From a virus, in IMG/VR virus record IMGVR_UViG_3300001480_000091: a stretch of DNA of 27,188 bases. One strand, 5' to 3'. The notes beneath the pieces are model-generated. The model did no database searches. It saw nothing but the letters and a program-made list of their open reading frames with translations, and was not told the origin of the DNA. Positions 163 through 27,188 of the stretch are shown piece by piece. The position numbers and the translations under genes are program-made. How positions within the stretch are numbered: the first letter of the stretch is position 1; every line of letters begins with the position of its first letter.

Positions 163-504
163 CTAATTTTTTTTGATTAGCTCCCCATTTTCATTAAACA
201 TTAATCCAGATCTAGTAACTTGATCTTTATGGTGTTCTTCTTCATGACAATCTTTGCAAATACCTTCTAAGTTACCTTCATCTAATGCTATTGAATCATC
301 ATAAACATTTATATTATCTAAATATATTTTATGATGGACTATTCCTGTTCTTCTTTTTTCTTTTGGAATCCATTTACTAATACCATCAACATATACAGGC
401 TTACCACATCTATTACATAATAGGTTTTGTTTCAACCAAACATTCTTTTTTACTTGTTTCCATGCTTTAGAATTATAAAAATCTTTTCTAACTCCATAAC
501 TCAT
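163..504 (-). CDS. HNH endonuclease, packaging-associated type, adjacent to the terminase
   Basis: 113 aa with CNRCG...HHKIY...N...CKDCH (zinc-ribbon CxxC pairs flanking His-Asn-His). It lies directly upstream of terS, as in HNH-dependent cos phages. Confidence 0.9.
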   Translation of the reverse strand: MSYGVRKDFYNSKAWKQVKKNVWLKQNLLCNRCGKPVYVDGISKWIPKEKRRTGIVHHKIYLDNINVYDDSIALDEGNLEGICKDCHEEEHHKDQVTRSGLMFNENGELIKKN

Positions 505-2103: not shown

Positions 2104-2475
2104 TTACTTTCTTAAGTAACTTCTTAATTTCTTTGGTATAGTTGTTCTATCATAATTCATCTTTTCAGCTACCTTCTCCCAACTTAATAAATCTAGAAAT
2201 CTATATCTCATTATTTGTCTTATTTCACTATCTTCTACTGATTCAATATAACTTTCTATTTTCAGATATTCTTCTAATGCTGATACTCTTGCACTTATCC
2301 ATTTCTCTATTATAACTACTCTTTTTTCTTGGATAGATTCAGTTGATGTTATTCCTGATATTTCTTTATCTAGTTTAGTTGCAGATACACCATATCCAAA
2401 TTCAGCAAGTCTTTCTTCTAGGTCTTTTATTTCTTTTCTTAACCAATAATATTTACTTAATTCTTTTTCAGTCAT
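2104..2475 (-). CDS. Late-gene transcriptional regulator, sigma-70 region-4 / DUF1492-like (RinA/ArpU/Ltr-type position)
   Basis: 123 aa. The N-terminus has YYWLRKEIKDLEERL. The C-terminal HTH reads IRQIMRYRFLDLLSWEKVAEKMNYDRTTIPKKLRSYL. It sits at the end of the early region, upstream of HNH/terS. Confidence 0.65.
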   Translation of the reverse strand: MTEKELSKYYWLRKEIKDLEERLAEFGYGVSATKLDKEISGITSTESIQEKRVVIIEKWISARVSALEEYLKIESYIESVEDSEIRQIMRYRFLDLLSWEKVAEKMNYDRTTIPKKLRSYLRK

Positions 2476-5214: not shown

Positions 5215-5832
5215 CTAAATATAAAAATCCTGTCTTGCTTTTTGTTGATCTTCATCATCCCAACATATATAAATCATTGTTACTTGTGGACTAGAATGAT
5301 TTAACATTTTTTGTAGAGTTATAATATCTTTTGTTTGTTCATAAAAAGTTCTTGCAAAACATTTTCTAAGTGAATGACATCCCACTAAATATTTAATCCC
5401 TAACTCTTTTGTATATTTTTTTATTCTATTCCATGCTTGTTGTGATGTTATTGGAATATTATGCCCTTTTCTTGATGGGAATAAATATTCTCCTTCATAT
5501 AAGTTATTTCTATTGATGTAATCCATAACATCTTTAAATAATTTTGGATTCAATTCCCAATATTGTTCTTTTCTAGTTTTATTTTCTCTTATATACATAA
5601 TCCCTTTTAGAAGATTTTCATTAACTTGCAATTTAAGCAGATCATTAATTCTAAAAGCTGTATTTAATCCTAGCTTTACCAGAATATAATCTCTATCATA
5701 CATTTTCTTTTTAAGTTCATTAGATTCATTATCTCTTTTCTTTTGAAGCATTATCATCAAATTAGAAGCATCTTCTTTTTTTAATGGTCTAACTGTGCTT
5801 CTACCATATTTGATTGGAAAGTATCTAGACAT
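5215..5832 (-). CDS. Tyrosine recombinase (phage-integrase family), catalytic domain only
   Basis: 205 aa with the catalytic signature in order: TAFRINDL (Arg), ENKTRKE (Lys), CHSLRKCFA (His-x-x-Arg), LNHSS (His), TMIYI (Tyr). There is no room for an N-terminal arm or core-binding domain. Confidence 0.85.
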   Translation of the reverse strand: MSRYFPIKYGRSTVRPLKKEDASNLMIMLQKKRDNESNELKKKMYDRDYILVKLGLNTAFRINDLLKLQVNENLLKGIMYIRENKTRKEQYWELNPKLFKDVMDYINRNNLYEGEYLFPSRKGHNIPITSQQAWNRIKKYTKELGIKYLVGCHSLRKCFARTFYEQTKDIITLQKMLNHSSPQVTMIYICWDDEDQQKARQDFYI

Positions 5833-21974: not shown

Positions 21975-23147
21975 CTAAACTGTTTCTGGTTTAGCAATTA
22001 ATGTAAATGCTTTATCAGCTACTGCATTAGTTCCTACATATTGTCTACCTAAAATTCTAATTAAATCAGAAGTCATTAGAGTCTTATCATCAAATTTAAG
22101 ATCAACTCCATCTCCTTCTGGGTAGTTAGCTAAAGTACCATGATCGAAATCTCCTACTATAGCATATACTTGTCCAGTTGTAGCTGTTCCATATGCTGGT
22201 AAAGTATTATTAAATCTAACTCTTATACCATCAAATATATCAGCAGCATAATTATTAGCTAATTGTACTCTCTTAAATTCAGCATAAGTTAATTTATTCA
22301 TAACTATAGTATAATCTCCAGCTTCATCACTAAGATTAGCTATAGCATTGAAAACAGTTCCCATTGCTGGAGCTTCTGTAATCTTATTAGCAGATACAGT
22401 ATCATAAATACCATCACTATTAGCTGTTAATGATTGTGGTAATGCAGCAATTTTAGCAATTAAACTATCAGCTGTCTTTTTAACAATTTTATATGTTAAT
22501 TCATCATAAACATATCTTAGGAAATCTTCTCCTCGTAATCCATATACCTCATCTGAAATAGAAATCCATTTCTTTATAGAAACTGGCTTTAATTCTACAA
22601 TTCCTAATACTAAACTTTCTTCAGTAACTGCTCCAGATCCTTCTGCATGTTCTACAGCATCAGTAGCACTTGCTTCAAAGTTTACTTTTAAATTACCTTG
22701 TACAGATACTTTTCTAACTAATGACATAATGTCATCTTTTTCCCATGCTGTTTTAACAATATCATATACAAAATCTGGTACTGCTACTGTTGATGATGAT
22801 CCTGTAATAGTACCAGCATTTTCTGATAATAATGCTCTCATTTCTTCATTATTACCTTTTACATATTCTGCAAAAGCATTAATATACTTTTCAGAGTTTC
22901 TAAATTCTTTCATTTCTTCATTCATACTTTTTACCTCAACTTTCTTTACTTCTTTTACTGCAAGAGATTTTTCTTCCATTTCTTTTGCAGTTTCTTCATT
23001 TTTTTCTTGTTCAGCTATTTGTTCAACTTCTTCATTTAAAGCATCAGCTTCTTTTTCTAATTCTTCTACTTGTTCAGTAGTTTCAGCATTTTCAACTTCT
23101 TCTCTAAGTTCAACTTTTCTAGCTTCAATTTCTTCTTTTCTTGACAT
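21975..23147 (-). CDS. Major capsid protein, HK97 fold, with an N-terminal coiled-coil (delta/scaffold-like) domain
   Basis: 390 aa with an E/K-rich first ~80 aa and a typical HK97-family body. It has a strong SD (AAGGAGGG) and lies downstream of the prohead protease. Confidence 0.92.
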   Translation of the reverse strand: MSRKEEIEARKVELREEVENAETTEQVEELEKEADALNEEVEQIAEQEKNEETAKEMEEKSLAVKEVKKVEVKSMNEEMKEFRNSEKYINAFAEYVKGNNEEMRALLSENAGTITGSSSTVAVPDFVYDIVKTAWEKDDIMSLVRKVSVQGNLKVNFEASATDAVEHAEGSGAVTEESLVLGIVELKPVSIKKWISISDEVYGLRGEDFLRYVYDELTYKIVKKTADSLIAKIAALPQSLTANSDGIYDTVSANKITEAPAMGTVFNAIANLSDEAGDYTIVMNKLTYAEFKRVQLANNYAADIFDGIRVRFNNTLPAYGTATTGQVYAIVGDFDHGTLANYPEGDGVDLKFDDKTLMTSDLIRILGRQYVGTNAVADKAFTLIAKPETV

Positions 23148-23198
23148 AATTGCCCTCCTTATATTTTTAGTTCTTTAAAGGCATCCTATATTCCTATT

Positions 23199-23266
23199 CA
23201 GCTCTCCAGCTGTCTATTAATACAACTTAGTTGCTCTCCAGCAACAAAAAAACATCTCTCCAGATG
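23199..23266 (-). repeat. Three hairpins sharing the core CUGGAGAG with covarying flanks (GGAG loops)
   Basis: The minus strand has CAUCU-GGAG-AGAUG (23253-23266), UUGCU-GGAG-AGCAA (23231-23244) and CAGCU-GGAG-AGCUG (23199-23212), all in the protease-capsid intergenic spacer. Confidence 0.65.
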
Positions 23267-23281
23267 CTTTTCCATAATTGT

Positions 23282-23884
23282 TTAACCTAATTTTGCTAAT
23301 ACTGATTCTTTTAGCTTTCTTAGTTCTTCTAATCTTTGTTTTTCTTCATGTTCTTTTCTTATTTGTTCTCTCCTAGCTAAGAAATCACTATTATTAATAT
23401 CTCTTGCTACTGATACATCAGTTGCATTGTAAAATGGTTGATCTACTACTGATACATCAAATAATTTACCTATTTTAGTAATTGTTCTTGTATCAGTATC
23501 ATAATCATATGTATCTTCTTCTACAGTGAATGCAAATGATTGTTTATCTATTAATTTACTTTTTACAGCATTAAATATATTTTTATGTTCTGTAATATCA
23601 TCTTGTAATGTAGCATCCATAAATAAACCTTTATCATCTACATCTAGTTTTAATGATTTATTTCTAGTTCTTGCTAATACCATAAATGAATCATTGTGAT
23701 TGTATCTAAGAACTACATCTGACATATCAGCTTCATCAAATGCTGTAGGTGCTATTATTTCAGTATATCCATATGTTTCTGGACTATTGAATACTGCTGC
23801 ATAACCTTTAATTTCCATTTTTCCTTCATCTGTATCTTCTGCCCTGAATTGTAAATCTAATTTTCTAGTTTCCTTCTCCTTCAT
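23282..23884 (-). CDS. Prohead maturation protease (HK97 / S78 family)
   Basis: It has EIKGYAAVFNSPE...RYNHNDSFMVLARTRN...LKLDVDDKGL motifs. The start is chosen at the second Met of MKMKEKE (SD AGGAGG, 8-nt spacing). Starts at 23890 or 23932 are also possible. Confidence 0.88.
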   Translation of the reverse strand: MKEKETRKLDLQFRAEDTDEGKMEIKGYAAVFNSPETYGYTEIIAPTAFDEADMSDVVLRYNHNDSFMVLARTRNKSLKLDVDDKGLFMDATLQDDITEHKNIFNAVKSKLIDKQSFAFTVEEDTYDYDTDTRTITKIGKLFDVSVVDQPFYNATDVSVARDINNSDFLARREQIRKEHEEKQRLEELRKLKESVLAKLG

Positions 23885-25115
23885 TTTCATTTCCTCCTTC
23901 TTCATCTGTGTTATTAGTATCAGTAGAATCATTACCTAACTGATAATCATTAGCTATATTACTGTCTATATGGTTTAAATCTTGAAGTATAACATCTCCA
24001 TCTTCTCTTGGTGCTAAATTAAACACTTCTCTTAATTCATTTACTGTCATAATGTTATTTGCATATCTTAATAATTCTATTTTTGTCTTATTACTTGCAT
24101 ATTGTAATCTATTACTTTCAAATAATATTTCATGTCCAAAATACTTTTGTGTTGAAGTGAATATTTTATTTGAAAACTCTAGACTCATTTGTAATCCTAT
24201 AGGTTCTAATATTGATTCATAAAAAGCATTCCATTGATCTTCTGAATATTTAGATTGGATAATTTCTTCACTTATACCAAAATAAGATAATAATTTATCA
24301 TCTATGCTCTTTACTTGACTATCACTAGCTGTAGTTGGCTCTATTTTTACAGGAGTAAAATCTGTTGTTGCATCTAATCCACCTATTCCAGATTTATCTC
24401 CACCTTTAACAAAATCAGAAACAAATTGATCTCTCATTTTCTTAACATCTTCTGGCTTTAACATTGCCTTTGTAGATTTGATTACACCTTTAATTGATTG
24501 AGTAGTTTTAATTGCATTTACAATTCCTTCATCCAATACATGTTTAATAGATAATGTTTTTATAATTGGTTTAGGACTACCACCAAATAATCCATCTTCT
24601 CCTACAAATCTTGTTAAATGAATACAATCATCATATGCTACAAATCTTTCTTTAGTTCTGCCAAACTTGAACTTTAACCATATTTGTCCTTTATATTCAT
24701 AATATTTTCCTTCACTAAAATTTAATGGATATAATCCTGTTACATTCAAATTTTCATCTCTTTGAACATAAATAAAAGAGTCATTATATAACTCTAAATT
24801 ACTTATTACTTGATAATAAAATTGATAAGCATTTTGAACTTCATTAGGTCTTTTAGCTAACAAAGAATACAAATTATCTTTTAAATTTTCCATTTTACCA
24901 GCAAAGTTTCTTATATGTCTAGGATGCATTTTAGCTCCATTTCTTGCTATAGCATCTATGCACTTTAATACATCAGGATCATTTTCAAAATCTCCCTTAT
25001 ATGGAGTAAATACAGCTTTTCTATCATCTAATATTTTTACTTCTGTTGCTGTTTCTGGTGCAGTTGTATTCTTATCATTACCAAATATGTTGCTAAACCA
25101 ACTTCTTAGTTCCAT
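23865..25115 (-). CDS. Portal protein (HK97 family)
   Basis: 416 aa with a TAATG overlap with terL and an acidic C-terminus. It sits between the terminase and the protease. Confidence 0.92.
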   Translation of the reverse strand: MELRSWFSNIFGNDKNTTAPETATEVKILDDRKAVFTPYKGDFENDPDVLKCIDAIARNGAKMHPRHIRNFAGKMENLKDNLYSLLAKRPNEVQNAYQFYYQVISNLELYNDSFIYVQRDENLNVTGLYPLNFSEGKYYEYKGQIWLKFKFGRTKERFVAYDDCIHLTRFVGEDGLFGGSPKPIIKTLSIKHVLDEGIVNAIKTTQSIKGVIKSTKAMLKPEDVKKMRDQFVSDFVKGGDKSGIGGLDATTDFTPVKIEPTTASDSQVKSIDDKLLSYFGISEEIIQSKYSEDQWNAFYESILEPIGLQMSLEFSNKIFTSTQKYFGHEILFESNRLQYASNKTKIELLRYANNIMTVNELREVFNLAPREDGDVILQDLNHIDSNIANDYQLGNDSTDTNNTDEEGGNENEGEGN

Positions 25116-26800
25116 TATTTAACCTCCTCACTAATATAATTTAAGTATTCTTGTTGTCTATTGATATAAATGACATATGCATCCATTAAAGAGGCAGCTC
25201 CATCAATTCTTTGCCTTGCTTTTTCCTTTGATAACATAATGTTTTCATTGTCATCAACTTTAACTACAACATTTGATAGATTCCACTTTAAAATTGGATT
25301 ATTGTTATAATTTATCTTTTTATCCATTAAATCAGCTTTCATTTGTTTTAATGGTGCTGATTCAGTCTTATAACCTTGTCTTATTTCTTGCATTGTAAAC
25401 CCATATGAAGTCATTTCATCACACCAAAATTGAGCATTCCAACTATCATAACCTACCCATAATGGTCTTAAGTCATTTTCTTGAACTTGTTCCAAAAACC
25501 ATGATGTTACATCATGATAATCAATTTTGGATGTTCCTGATAATCTTAATAATCCATTTTTTAACCATTTATCATATGGGATTTTATCTTCTGTAACTTT
25601 TTTCTCTAAAAAGTTAGCTGGAATCCAATACATTTGCTTTACTCTTATTTTTCCTTTTACAACACCTAATAATGTTGCACAAGTTAAGTCTGTAGTGCTT
25701 GACAAATCACATCCACCAATGCAGTAGCAATCTTTCCAATCAGAATAGATTTCTTCATTATTCAAATCTTCAAATGTAAGCCATGCATTTATACTATTTT
25801 GTCTTACATTGAAATCTTTACATAATAAGTTGACTAACTCTATTGGATTATTTTTTGCTCTTTCTACTTTTTCTCTTAAATTCTTTATTGATTTAATTTT
25901 TCCTAATGCTGGATTAGCTTTATACCAGCATTCTTCATTTGTCCATTCTTTTTCATTGTCTAATTCATAAATAATTGGTAATAGAACATCATCTTGTATT
26001 GAACCTTCTATTACTTGTGCAGCATAGTCATATTCAATATCAAATACATTTTGTCTTACAGTTCCCATAGTAGAAGTTTCTAATAATAATGGCTGTTCTC
26101 TTGCACTCATAGAATCATACATGACATCTAATAAATTTTTATCTTTCCATGCATGGACTTCATCAGCAACTACTAAATGTGCATTTAAACCATCTAATGA
26201 ATTGCTATCAGATGCTAATGCTCTAAATGATGAATCAGTAGCATCATAATATATTCCACCTATTAGACATCTTATTCTTTTTGCTAGAGATGGACTTTTT
26301 TTTATCATTTTCTTGCTTTCTTCCCAAACAATTTTTGATTGATCTCTTTTAGTAGCAATAGAATATATTTCTGCTCCACCTTCTCCATCTTTAGTAAGCA
26401 TAAAATTAGCTATTCCAGAATCTAATACAGATTTTCCATTTTTTCTAGCAACAAATAATATTGCTTTTCTATATTGTCTAAAACCTGTATCTTTATCTAC
26501 AAATCCAAACAATGCTTGTAGAAATGCTTTTTGAAATAGTTCTAATTTAAGTGGTTTTCCATTCCATTTGCCTTTAGATTGTCTACAATATTTTTCTATA
26601 AAATGAATACATCTTAAAGATTTTTTTTCATCAAAAATATAAGTATGATTTTCATTTTCTCCTGTTACTTTATTAAAAAAAGAAACCTTTTGTGGTTTCT
26701 TCAATTTTTTTACTAAATTTTTATATACTGTCTTTACTTTTATTCCAACTTTATTTGGATTTTTTTTAATCCATTCATAGTATTCTTCAATATATGTCAT
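25115..26800 (-). CDS. terL: Terminase large subunit
   Basis: 561 aa with Walker A (VARKNGKS), Walker B-like (LVVADEVHAW) and a C-terminal nuclease region. It has an ATGA overlap with terS. Confidence 0.95.
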   Translation of the reverse strand: MTYIEEYYEWIKKNPNKVGIKVKTVYKNLVKKLKKPQKVSFFNKVTGENENHTYIFDEKKSLRCIHFIEKYCRQSKGKWNGKPLKLELFQKAFLQALFGFVDKDTGFRQYRKAILFVARKNGKSVLDSGIANFMLTKDGEGGAEIYSIATKRDQSKIVWEESKKMIKKSPSLAKRIRCLIGGIYYDATDSSFRALASDSNSLDGLNAHLVVADEVHAWKDKNLLDVMYDSMSAREQPLLLETSTMGTVRQNVFDIEYDYAAQVIEGSIQDDVLLPIIYELDNEKEWTNEECWYKANPALGKIKSIKNLREKVERAKNNPIELVNLLCKDFNVRQNSINAWLTFEDLNNEEIYSDWKDCYCIGGCDLSSTTDLTCATLLGVVKGKIRVKQMYWIPANFLEKKVTEDKIPYDKWLKNGLLRLSGTSKIDYHDVTSWFLEQVQENDLRPLWVGYDSWNAQFWCDEMTSYGFTMQEIRQGYKTESAPLKQMKADLMDKKINYNNNPILKWNLSNVVVKVDDNENIMLSKEKARQRIDGAASLMDAYVIYINRQQEYLNYISEEVK

Positions 26801-27123
26801 AGTTCATCATTATCAAAATCATCAAAATTATCAGATAATTCTTTAGGAATTAATTCATATACTTGCTTTATAGTTGAATTATAATTTTTTATCATTGCAT
26901 TGTATTGAGTAATTGCTGGATTAGCTCTATCAATAAAATATTTTCCTTGATCCATCTGTGTAACTACTCCATTTTTTGTAATTTCACTTTTTAATTTTGC
27001 CATTGTTTTTTTCATGAACTCTAATTCTTTAATTAAAGCTAATCCTAACATAGACTTATCTTCTGGCATCTCATTTAACACATTTTTAACTGCTTTAAAG
27101 TTAATTGCTTTACTTTTAGTCAT
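26797..27123 (-). CDS. terS: Terminase small subunit (P27-like)
   Basis: The start is taken at MTKSKAINFK (ATG 27121-27123, SD AGGAGCAG). The track's start at 27180 lies in the leader. It is 108 aa with ...DRANPAITQYNAMIKNY... and an acidic tail. Confidence 0.82.
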   Translation of the reverse strand: MTKSKAINFKAVKNVLNEMPEDKSMLGLALIKELEFMKKTMAKLKSEITKNGVVTQMDQGKYFIDRANPAITQYNAMIKNYNSTIKQVYELIPKELSDNFDDFDNDEL

Positions 27124-27188
27124 TTTACTGCTCCTTTCACAAATTATGGGGGTATTTGCATGAATTTGCACATTTTTCAAAGGCCCTT
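27072..27188. repeat. Right copy of the exact 117-bp direct terminal repeat
   Basis: Base-for-base identical to 1-117. Confidence 0.97.

Follow-up and report, generated by a model that had tools for sequence, protein, structure and literature searches.

The question raised by this locus is why the short spacer between the prohead protease and major capsid genes of a phage should carry three small hairpins with one and the same loop. The locus lies in a window (the whole stretch of DNA that was analysed) of 27,188 nt from an IMG/VR virus record. All genes of the window are on the minus strand, and by Pfam and PHROGs assignment they form a typical late operon of an HK97-type siphophage (Table 1), in which the capsid gene is followed by connectors, tail genes, a holin and a lysin, and then by replication and regulatory genes. 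The spacer comprises 134 nt on the minus strand, from the protease stop codon (23282-23284) to the capsid ATG (23147-23145).

Predicted fold of the protease-capsid spacer

The presence of three hairpins with GGAG loops in front of the capsid gene, which had been read from the sequence of the window alone (hereafter the original prediction), was borne out. The core CTGGAGAG occurs three times in the window, counting either strand, and all three occurrences are within the spacer; 0.20 were expected and none of 100 shuffled sequences reached three. One-mismatch variants of the core outside the spacer occurred at the chance rate. The hairpin cluster is single in the window, and lone U-GG..-A hairpins elsewhere were at background (5 seen versus 7 expected). 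Each of the hairpins folds on its own, with predicted energies for hairpins 1, 2 and 3 of -11.8, -6.6 and -5.6 kcal/mol and z-scores of -5.2, -4.7 and -2.9, respectively; the fold of the whole leader had a z-score of -4.3 against shuffles.

Hairpin 1 contains the inner palindrome CAUCU-GGAG-AGAUG (23266-23253). Its predicted extension into a longer helix does exist, but with 12-14 bp, formed by pairing of an A/G-run with the U-run, rather than with the 10 bp first proposed. An 11-bp closing helix, P0, is formed by 23286-23276 and 23227-23216; it surrounds hairpins 1 and 2 to give a three-way junction, which folded alone (23286-23216) at -22.6 kcal/mol with a z-score of -4.0. The stem of hairpin 2 has 6 bp. 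P0 and the coding-embedded version described below had been missed in the original prediction.

Table 1. Genes and RNA features of the window, with coordinates
Feature	Position	Strand	Basis and remarks
Small terminase	26797-27180	-	Pfam/PHROGs
Large terminase	25115-26800	-	Pfam/PHROGs
Portal	23865-25115	-	Pfam/PHROGs
Prohead protease (Peptidase_S78), upstream partner of the element	23282-23932	-	Pfam, E = 8e-35
P0 5' strand, GUUAAACAAUU	23276..23286	-	Closing helix of three-way junction; holds protease stop codon UAA (23284-23282)
Hairpin 1 (P1), GGAAAAGCAUCU-GGAG-AGAUGUUUUUUU	23246..23273	-	Loop 23261-23258; U-run 23252-23246; terminator-like
Hairpin 2 (P2), GUUGCU-GGAG-AGCAAC	23230..23245	-	6 bp; loop 23239-23236; abuts hairpin 1
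P0 3' strand, AGUUGU-A-UUAAU	23216..23227	-	Includes part of UUAAUA block
Hairpin 3 (P3), CAGCU-GGAG-AGCUG	23199..23212	-	Loop 23207-23204
Conserved segment, AGGAAUAUAGGAUGCCUUUAAAG	23173..23195	-	Alignment and fold; least certain part
Capsid translation start	23143..23160	-	SD AAGGAGGG (23160-23153); ATG 23147-23145; small hairpin GGCA..UGUC over start codon
Major capsid protein (HK97 fold, N-terminal delta/scaffold domain), 3' of the element	21975-23147	-	Pfam Phage_capsid, E = 2e-13
Late regulator	2104-2475	-	phrog_36/DUF1492 protein

Between hairpin 3 and the capsid start, the conserved segment may form a fourth small hairpin (AGG..CCU in the window and GGCA-GUUA-UGCC in relatives), as judged from modelling. 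In the predicted fold of the window phage, UGCCUUU of this segment can pair with the SD. The SD pairing probability ranged from 0.03 to 0.78 across relatives, and a riboswitch-like SD sequestration was dropped as a general feature; as the sequestration was not conserved, no clear expression platform was found. The small hairpin over the capsid start codon covaries in relatives (GUCA/UGAC, GACA/UGUC).

Other kinds of element were searched for at the same place. No tandem DNA repeat array was detected at the spacer by TRF, and no promoter-like site was found on the minus strand between 23148 and 23281 in a scan for -35/-10 hexamers with 16-18 nt spacing and A2 and T6 in the -10. No tRNA gene was found in the window by ARAGORN; CAGCUGGAGAGC and UUGGUAGA resemble D-arm sequences. 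Pfam and PHROGs scans of 40 minus-strand ORFs of the window gave no candidate for an RNA-binding protein.

Covariation and distribution in related phages

The original prediction had proposed aligning the spacers of related phages and examining them for covariation. With the capsid protein as query, 80 viral, 10 genomic and 80 metagenomic loci were retrieved, mostly from rumen and gut samples; the host is an uncultured low-GC Firmicute, known as Firmicutes or Bacillales MAG contigs. Taking 200 nt upstream of each capsid start yielded 101 distinct sequences, 22 of which have a real protease-capsid spacer of 92-201 nt (L275 was left out, its apparent gap of 240 nt being a probable gene-call error). 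The same architecture was present in all 22 unique spacer-bearing relatives: hairpin 1 (10-14 bp), a U-run, hairpin 2 abutting, an AU-rich linker and hairpin 3, the last being absent only from L016 and L018 (20 of 22). The stems vary between phages, and also among the three copies in one phage, with their complementarity kept. On a plain MAFFT alignment, RNAalifold independently predicted this fold together with P0 around hairpins 1 and 2. At least nine distinct complementary helices occupy the P0 position in relatives (ACAAUU/AGUUGU, AAGAC/GUCUU, AUGUC/GACAU, AUAUCU/AGAUAU, ACGAUU/AAUCGU, AGCAU/AUGCU, AUGAUU/AGUCAU, ACAAUUU/GAAUUGU and UCUC/GAGA). P0 belongs to the layout of all 22 and continues outward through UUAA or UUAUAA, which carries the protease stop codon and pairs with the UUAAUA block, and this block is invariant in the 14 GGA-type leaders of alignment A1.

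As plain MAFFT mis-registered stems with unequal loop lengths, base pairs were counted in a hairpin-anchored alignment (A4) of 24 distinct leaders, in which gaps were written as N. Paired cells amounted to 96.9%, compared with 65.9% in shuffles and 37-57% in slid-partner controls, a percentage that is inflated by the artificial anchors fitted to the structure. The number of double changes is not inflated in this way, and compensatory changes on both sides were found for 23 of the 27 base pairs. The covariation score was 0.879 versus 0.247 in shuffled alignments, and none of 500 shuffles reached the observed values. By helix, double changes were present at 6/6 pairs of P0 and at 5/6 pairs of P2, where 98.6% of cells were paired; ten positions of P1 were paired in 26/26 leaders, with 2-5 pair types each, and the inner four positions of P3 in 24/24, with up to five pair types.

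The U-run after hairpin 1, U7 in the window, is conserved in all 26 leaders, and the outer 3' strand of P1 is always U, even opposite G (for example A-U 12 and G-U 12). This indicates that in the low-GC lineages the U-run is conserved in its own right, as it would be in an intrinsic terminator, and the earlier description of hairpin 1 as terminator-like agrees with the sequence in this respect. In the window phage, the stem of hairpin 1 has only two G-C pairs and was not recovered by a terminator scan; stronger stems are found in L017, L055 and L167.

The loops are identical or nearly so among the two or three hairpins of one phage, the stems of which differ, and the loop varies by lineage. 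GGAG is the commonest class, found in the window and in many other leaders; GGAAU was found in L015, L219, L472 and L498, GGAC in L224, GGUAGA in seven distinct leaders, GGUG in L018 and GGAUUU in L026, and mixed or intermediate states in L013, L014 and L437. The loop always starts with GG, no loop starting GGC or GGG was seen, and the closing pair is almost always U-A (U-G or A-U in 3 of 76 hairpins). Loop starts are 22-26 nt apart for hairpins 1 and 2, and 29-34 nt apart for hairpins 2 and 3 (22 nt in L017). An unbiased screen of the 101 upstream regions for two nearby hairpins with any shared loop yielded 29 cases, of which 26 were listed as GG-initial; L013 and L026, in the same screen, are GG-initial in another register. 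An RNA partner for the loops was rejected, as the complement of each lineage's loop (CTCC, TCTACC, ATTCC, GTCC, CACC) had no consistent nearby site within 3-4 kb on either side of the capsid start or, for the window, in the whole 27 kb.

In higher-GC relatives without a spacer, the protease stop codon overlaps or abuts the capsid start. In many of these, codons x-L-E-S-x in the C-terminal tail of the protease, past the S78 domain delimited by Pfam, form two or three GGAG hairpins, which lie 57-120 nt before the stop codon and in most cases have a spacing of exactly 21 nt. There is no U-run and no linker in this version, and a further CGCC-GGAG/GGAC-GGCG hairpin is often located 3' of these hairpins. 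On either side of the 8-nt core lies a third codon position, and the two bases were Watson-Crick paired in 75 of 79 distinct hairpins (G-C 38, A-U 35 and U-A 2, the last with Ser changed to Arg; the others were G-U 2 and mismatch 2). A global shuffle gave a mean of 36.6 Watson-Crick pairs and a maximum of 54 in 10,000 shuffles. As GC-driven codon bias could mimic third-position pairing, the shuffle was also performed within the genomes that have both types, and 28 of 31 hairpins were paired compared with 16.2 expected (P = 0.0006). This indicates that the hairpins are held at the nucleic-acid level even where protein is also encoded. Many other matches to CTGGAGAG in high-GC relatives are ordinary codons in unrelated genes (e.g. 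C-W-R-A in a downstream gene) and were set aside.

Three pattern scans of IMG/VR were performed, for tandem cores of the GGAG, GGUAGA and GGAAU types. Among the matches listed, every architecture-positive one sits between S78 protease and capsid genes (L152, L167, L316, L385, L437, L472, L498 and L501), and those with identical stems (L083, L382, L392, L412, L509 and L516) are coding repeats, collagen-like and others, and not the element. The leader type tracked the protease lineage and the first approximately 50 codons of the capsid gene, and not the body of the capsid gene. Protease and capsid-body identities were 80% and 32% for L437 versus L015, and 60% and 25% for L385 versus L055; for the GGUAGA phages L009 and L055 compared with the window, the capsid bodies were 79-80% identical and the L055 protease 50% identical (the L009 protease was not recovered). 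GGAG loops are also found where the accompanying proteases share only 45-50% identity (L167), as well as in high-GC lineages whose proteases are distantly related. No close cultured phage was found, and the element was absent from Butyrivibrio phages Arian and Arawn, Enterococcus phage 9184 and Lactococcus phage bIL285; a single GGAG hairpin is present in Staphylococcus phage PhiSepi-HH1. The coding repeat had no match by blastn among 50,697 phage records.

The original prediction that the hairpin structure, and not a linear site, is under selection was upheld by the differing but complementary stems of relatives, by the RNAalifold consensus and by the third-position compensation within the protease frame. 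On these sequence comparisons, the junction of the S78 protease and capsid genes very probably carries a selected, strand-specific RNA structure that presents three matching GG-initial loops.

Known RNA families and rival explanations

No covariance model of Rfam 15 matched the window or 12 related loci at the gathering score, and a search of the leader with E up to 10 returned only two chance-level matches. No published description of the element was found in the literature; a 2023 catalogue of approximately 10,000 candidate viral RNAs may include it, but gives no description of it in the text (PMC10690425). These searches agree with the earlier statement that no element of such form had been described. 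The element is apparently a real, well-supported structured RNA, undescribed as far as checked, that goes beyond the three palindromes first reported. For each family that was tested, at least one of the defining features is missing from the element; this includes dispersed palindromic repeats of the REP/BIME or MITE kind, as there is one cluster in the window and the structured scan matches listed are all at the protease-capsid junction.

The lambda nut boxB hairpin bound by N is similar in its stem of 5-6 bp, in its small GNRA-like loop that begins with G, is lineage-specific and is repeated per genome, in its place beside a terminator (here, a terminator-like hairpin), and in that a lineage-specific loop implies a co-evolving phage protein. 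The element differs from boxB in its three copies within one 90-nt unit in the middle of the late operon, its stems, which differ between the copies, and its Firmicute hosts; no N-like protein was named by Pfam or PHROGs in the window, and such scans would not necessarily detect one. ANTAR dual hairpins are likewise tandem small hairpins with matching loops, read by an oligomeric regulator (only proposed here) and next to a terminator (here, a terminator-like hairpin). However, ANTAR loops are hexaloops with A1 and G4, whereas the loops GGAG, GGAAU and GGUAGA start with GG, and the ANTAR terminator is an alternative fold, whereas here the terminator-like hairpin is the first hairpin itself. 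The version inside the protease frame resembles the TURBS of caliciviruses and influenza B virus, in which a structure in the last approximately 100 nt of the upstream ORF places a G-rich motif before a stop/start overlap. TURBS are eukaryotic and their UGGGA motif pairs with 18S rRNA, and the window has a spacer of 134 nt; we know of no bacterial counterpart. In the HIV-1 packaging signal, the SL2 (GGUG) and SL3 (GGAG) tetraloops are reportedly bound by nucleocapsid (PMC7599994). These adjacent hairpins expose the guanines of the same two tetraloops to a structural protein of the virus. The likeness is confined to form, as the type of virus and the function (genome packaging) are different and no zinc-knuckle protein was seen here.

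Several rival explanations were weighed at the RNA level. The SD-like loops might act as a ribosome decoy, standby site or 5' stabiliser, keeping 30S subunits or terminating ribosomes close to the RBS of the capsid gene and so raising initiation or blocking 5'-3' decay of the RNase J type, which we consider rather unlikely. GGAG and GGUG are complementary to CUCC and CACC in the 3' tail of 16S rRNA; GGAGG is present in the third hairpin of high-GC relatives (CC-GGAG-GG), and in related phages the true capsid SD is itself in a hairpin loop (GUUA[GGAGG]UAAC, UUUUAAG[GGAGG]UUUAAAA). The prevalence of GGAG together with very divergent proteases and the lack of GGC- and GGG-initial loops point the same way, and there are precedents in Bacillus, the STAB-SD and the SP82 polypurine stabiliser (listed as references 106 and 179 of PMC3997798), in which a strongly expressed Gram-positive or phage gene has SD-like purines a long way upstream of its true RBS and ribosome binding is proposed. 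However, known STAB-SDs are single-stranded polypurine tracts near the 5' end, whereas the motif of the element is locked in a 4-6-nt loop in triplicate, and a stem-closed 4-nt loop cannot pair fully with another RNA. GGUAGA, GGAAU, GGAC and GGAUUU offer only three bases complementary to the 16S tail, fewer than the four looked for, and seven distinct leaders have an invariant GGUAGA loop although their own RBS is GGAGG. The suggestion of an SD decoy or standby site was not supported as a general explanation, as whole lineages with GGUAGA or GGUG loops keep the architecture and GGUAGA is a poor complement of the anti-SD. The same lineages weaken the earlier suggestion of host CsrA-type sites, in which GGA loops together with the GGA of the SD would bind CsrA dimers, repressing the capsid gene or titrating CsrA as CsrB and RsmZ do. 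GGA in a short hairpin loop is a hallmark of CsrA sites, and the CsrA/RsmA leaders and sponges (hag, glgC; CsrB, RsmZ) likewise offer several GGA-loop hairpins, upstream of or including a GGA-containing SD, to a dimer in a multivalent manner; here, three GGA loops lie 46-100 nt upstream of a GGA-containing SD, and most loop classes begin with GGA. GGA is present in every loop of the window and of the GGA-N lineages, but not in the GGUAGA (7 leaders) and GGUG (L018) lineages. CsrA sites are A(N)GGA(N) hexaloops (SELEX consensus RUACARGGAUGU), whereas the loops here are 4-nt GGAG closed by U-A and C-G pairs with C-U before the GGA. CsrA leaders also differ from the fixed three-way junction at one gene junction and from the in-frame version, and no CsrA gene (PF02599) was found among the window ORFs with Pfam and PHROGs. 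CsrA binding is considered improbable, and as a general explanation it is not supported. A structural punctuation without a specific binder is intermediate in likelihood between these two, and is also doubtful: hairpin 1 would end transcripts or protect 3' ends, an RNase (Y, E-like or III) would cut the linker or the long helix, and hairpin 3 would guard the new 5' end, so that the capsid message outlives the protease message, and conservation of the loops would reflect stability (GGAG and GGAA belong to the GNAR tetraloops). The U-run conserved as U, the position of hairpin 3 just 3' of the linker, and the UUAAUA invariant in the 14 GGA-type leaders of A1 as a single-stranded AU-rich context between structured blocks are all compatible with this, and the GGAG tetraloop is reported as a stable loop type in SRP RNA (PMC8515804). 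Stability, however, leaves unexplained the joint change of one phage's loops to GGUAGA, GGAAU or GGAC; the in-frame version has neither the U-run nor the linker, and P0 pairs the supposedly single-stranded UUAAU.

Two further rivals place the signal outside RNA structure. The three CTGGAGAG direct repeats could bind a lineage-specific late activator, for which the phrog_36/DUF1492 protein is a candidate, at a capsid promoter TTGCTG-16-TATTAA. The repeats are 22 and 32 bp apart, about two and three helical turns, lineage-specific cores would be expected of a co-evolving DNA-binding protein, the late regulator gene is present in the window, and there is a weak -35/-10-like arrangement with conserved TTG and TTAATA; the promoter scan of the spacer was nevertheless negative, and a duplex site gives no reason for complementary variable flanks or for the covarying distant strands of P0. 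Alternatively, the overlapping 25-codon ORF (MEKHLERCFFVAGEQLSCINRQLES), noted in the original prediction and confirmed to exist in the window, might be a real small gene or leader peptide with the palindromes as a by-product. It is in frame with the protease, and its ATG is at the same place in several relatives, but it is absent in L004/L005, L012, L013, L015, L219, L437 and L472; the length and frame vary between relatives, and the amino acids change with every compensatory change of the stems (HLERC versus ELESS). The persistence of the hairpins in coding sequence by compensatory third-position changes, with the covariation of P0, argues against both, and we regard the DNA-level sites as very improbable and the small gene as scarcely credible.

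Proposed function and meaning for phage biology

The reading that we prefer, at a likelihood just short of even and from sequence comparison, is that the element is a cis-acting RNA that would show its three matching loops to a trans-acting binder and so control capsid translation or mRNA fate, with hairpin 1 as a leaky terminator. The three identical loops would form a multivalent operator for one binder, most likely an oligomeric RNA-binding protein. This binder would be phage-encoded rather than host-encoded, because the loops change in concert between lineages, which the host ribosome and CsrA would not. Binding might tune the capsid output relative to the protease post-transcriptionally, through translation initiation, mRNA stability or both. 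The first candidates for the binder would be the co-inherited neighbours, namely the protease, or the N-terminal scaffold domain of the capsid protein as an autoregulator. The occurrence of GGAG with divergent proteases argues for a universal partner instead, at least for the GGAG loop. The uniformity of the loops could also stem in part from a shared origin of the hairpins.

In the low-GC lineages, hairpin 1 and its U-run might be a leaky intrinsic terminator or a 3'-end protector for the packaging, portal and protease genes, and the AU-rich linker with hairpin 3 might provide a protected 5' end for the capsid message. As P0 covaries, the read-through RNA should also matter, and termination would then be partial. 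A terminator before the gene of the most abundant structural protein is counter-intuitive. Because the protease stop codon is inside P0, ribosomes ending protease synthesis must open the junction, which would allow a possible coupling of the two genes.

A more specific and rather doubtful version of the operator reading is that the element is the RNA operator of an assembly-coupled feedback in HK97-type phages, in which the loops would be bound by an unassembled head protein encoded beside the element (the N-terminal scaffold domain of the capsid protein or the S78 protease), and capsid synthesis would thereby be held back or released. If this were true, the loop and the protein would co-evolve as one recombination module, the tolerance of hairpins inside the protease frame would be explained, and the element would represent a new class of autoregulation for the structural genes of tailed phages.

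The stoichiometry of capsid to protease or portal protein in phages, hundreds versus a handful from one late transcript, is mostly credited to RBS strength. In a wide range of uncultured phages from gut and rumen, the present analysis places a covariation-supported RNA structure precisely at the junction of the protease and capsid genes. If the element serves as an operator to which a phage or host factor binds, it would make head-protein stoichiometry accessible to testing, add a new candidate RNA family with which viral metagenomes can be annotated, and supply a compact, lineage-specific RNA-protein pair that might serve as a tool. If it is only a terminator and stabiliser, it would still be of use for marking operon punctuation in phages of Firmicutes.

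Hairpins at the capsid ribosome-binding site

A hairpin of 4-5 bp covers the start codon of the capsid gene, and a hairpin is found at the equivalent position in five related phages or contigs (L004, L011, L012, L014 and L219). Its second pair covaries with capsid codon 2 between the window (GGCA..AUG-UC) and the relatives (GUCA..AUG-AC and GACA..AUG-UC). The conserved block downstream of the third spacer hairpin, AGG..GAUGCCUUUAAAGAAC, folds as GGCA-GUUA-UGCC in the related loci L011 and L015; in the window, an alternative pairing of this block with the capsid Shine-Dalgarno and start codon is possible.

Other lineages carry GGAGG, the genuine Shine-Dalgarno of the capsid gene, within a hairpin loop, as in UUUUAAG[GGAGG]UUUAAAA and GUUA[GGAGG]UAAC. 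This display format is identical to that of the upstream GG-loop hairpins.

Coordinates of the features in the window and in related loci; negative positions count from the capsid ATG
Feature	Genome or locus	Position	Strand
HNH endonuclease gene	window	163-504	
DUF1492/phrog_36 transcriptional regulator	window	2104-2475	-
Integrase-family protein	window	5215-5832	-
Capsid start-codon hairpin	window	23143-23154	-
Conserved block after third hairpin	window	23173-23195	-
Portal/protease overlap	window	23865-23932	
Small terminase	window	26797-27180	
Shine-Dalgarno-loop hairpin	L009/L010/L225	about -19	
Shine-Dalgarno-loop hairpin	L068, L073, L076, L204, L210	about -18 to -20	
UACUU[CAACG]GAGUG hairpin	L023, L029, L036, L042, L044, L050 and about ten more loci	about -97 to -128	
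Single GGAG-loop hairpin	L532 (PhiSepi-HH1)	-75	

Genome context and inheritance of the leader

One end of the window carries an HNH endonuclease gene and the opposite end the small terminase, an arrangement that suggests a nearly complete genome of ~27 kb, circularly permuted and with every gene on one strand. A 24.7-kb MAG contig assigned to 'uncultured Firmicutes' (L201) bears a copy 99% identical to the window. The DUF1492/phrog_36 regulator is likely a late-gene activator, and an unusually short integrase-family protein (205 aa) is encoded midway through the early region. The portal gene and the longest protease ORF overlap by 68 nt, and the true protease start is probably an ATG further downstream (MKMKEKETRKL).

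When the capsid genes of five related loci (L009, L055, L385, L437 and L167) are compared with the window, a recombination boundary falls within the N-terminal delta/scaffold domain of the capsid. Protease, leader and the initial ~50 codons of the capsid gene form one unit of inheritance, while the capsid body may show 22-32% or 80% identity.

Related and look-alike hairpins

The sequences CAGCUGGAGAGC and UUGGUAGA(A), at window 23199-23266, are similar to AGCUGGGAGAGC and UUGGUAGAGC, which are common tRNA D-loop/stem sequences. A search with ARAGORN found no tRNA, and the likeness is probably a coincidence. Another hairpin, UACUU[CAACG]GAGUG, recurs at the protease tail codons Y-F-N-G-V of relatives that lack the GG-loop hairpins, and this may simply reflect a conserved peptide.

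The cultured Staphylococcus phage PhiSepi-HH1 has a single GGAG-loop hairpin, UUGAUUU[GGAG]AAGUCGG, with CTGGAGAG close to it within the protease tail. This might represent a degenerate or minimal version of the three-hairpin element in a tractable host.
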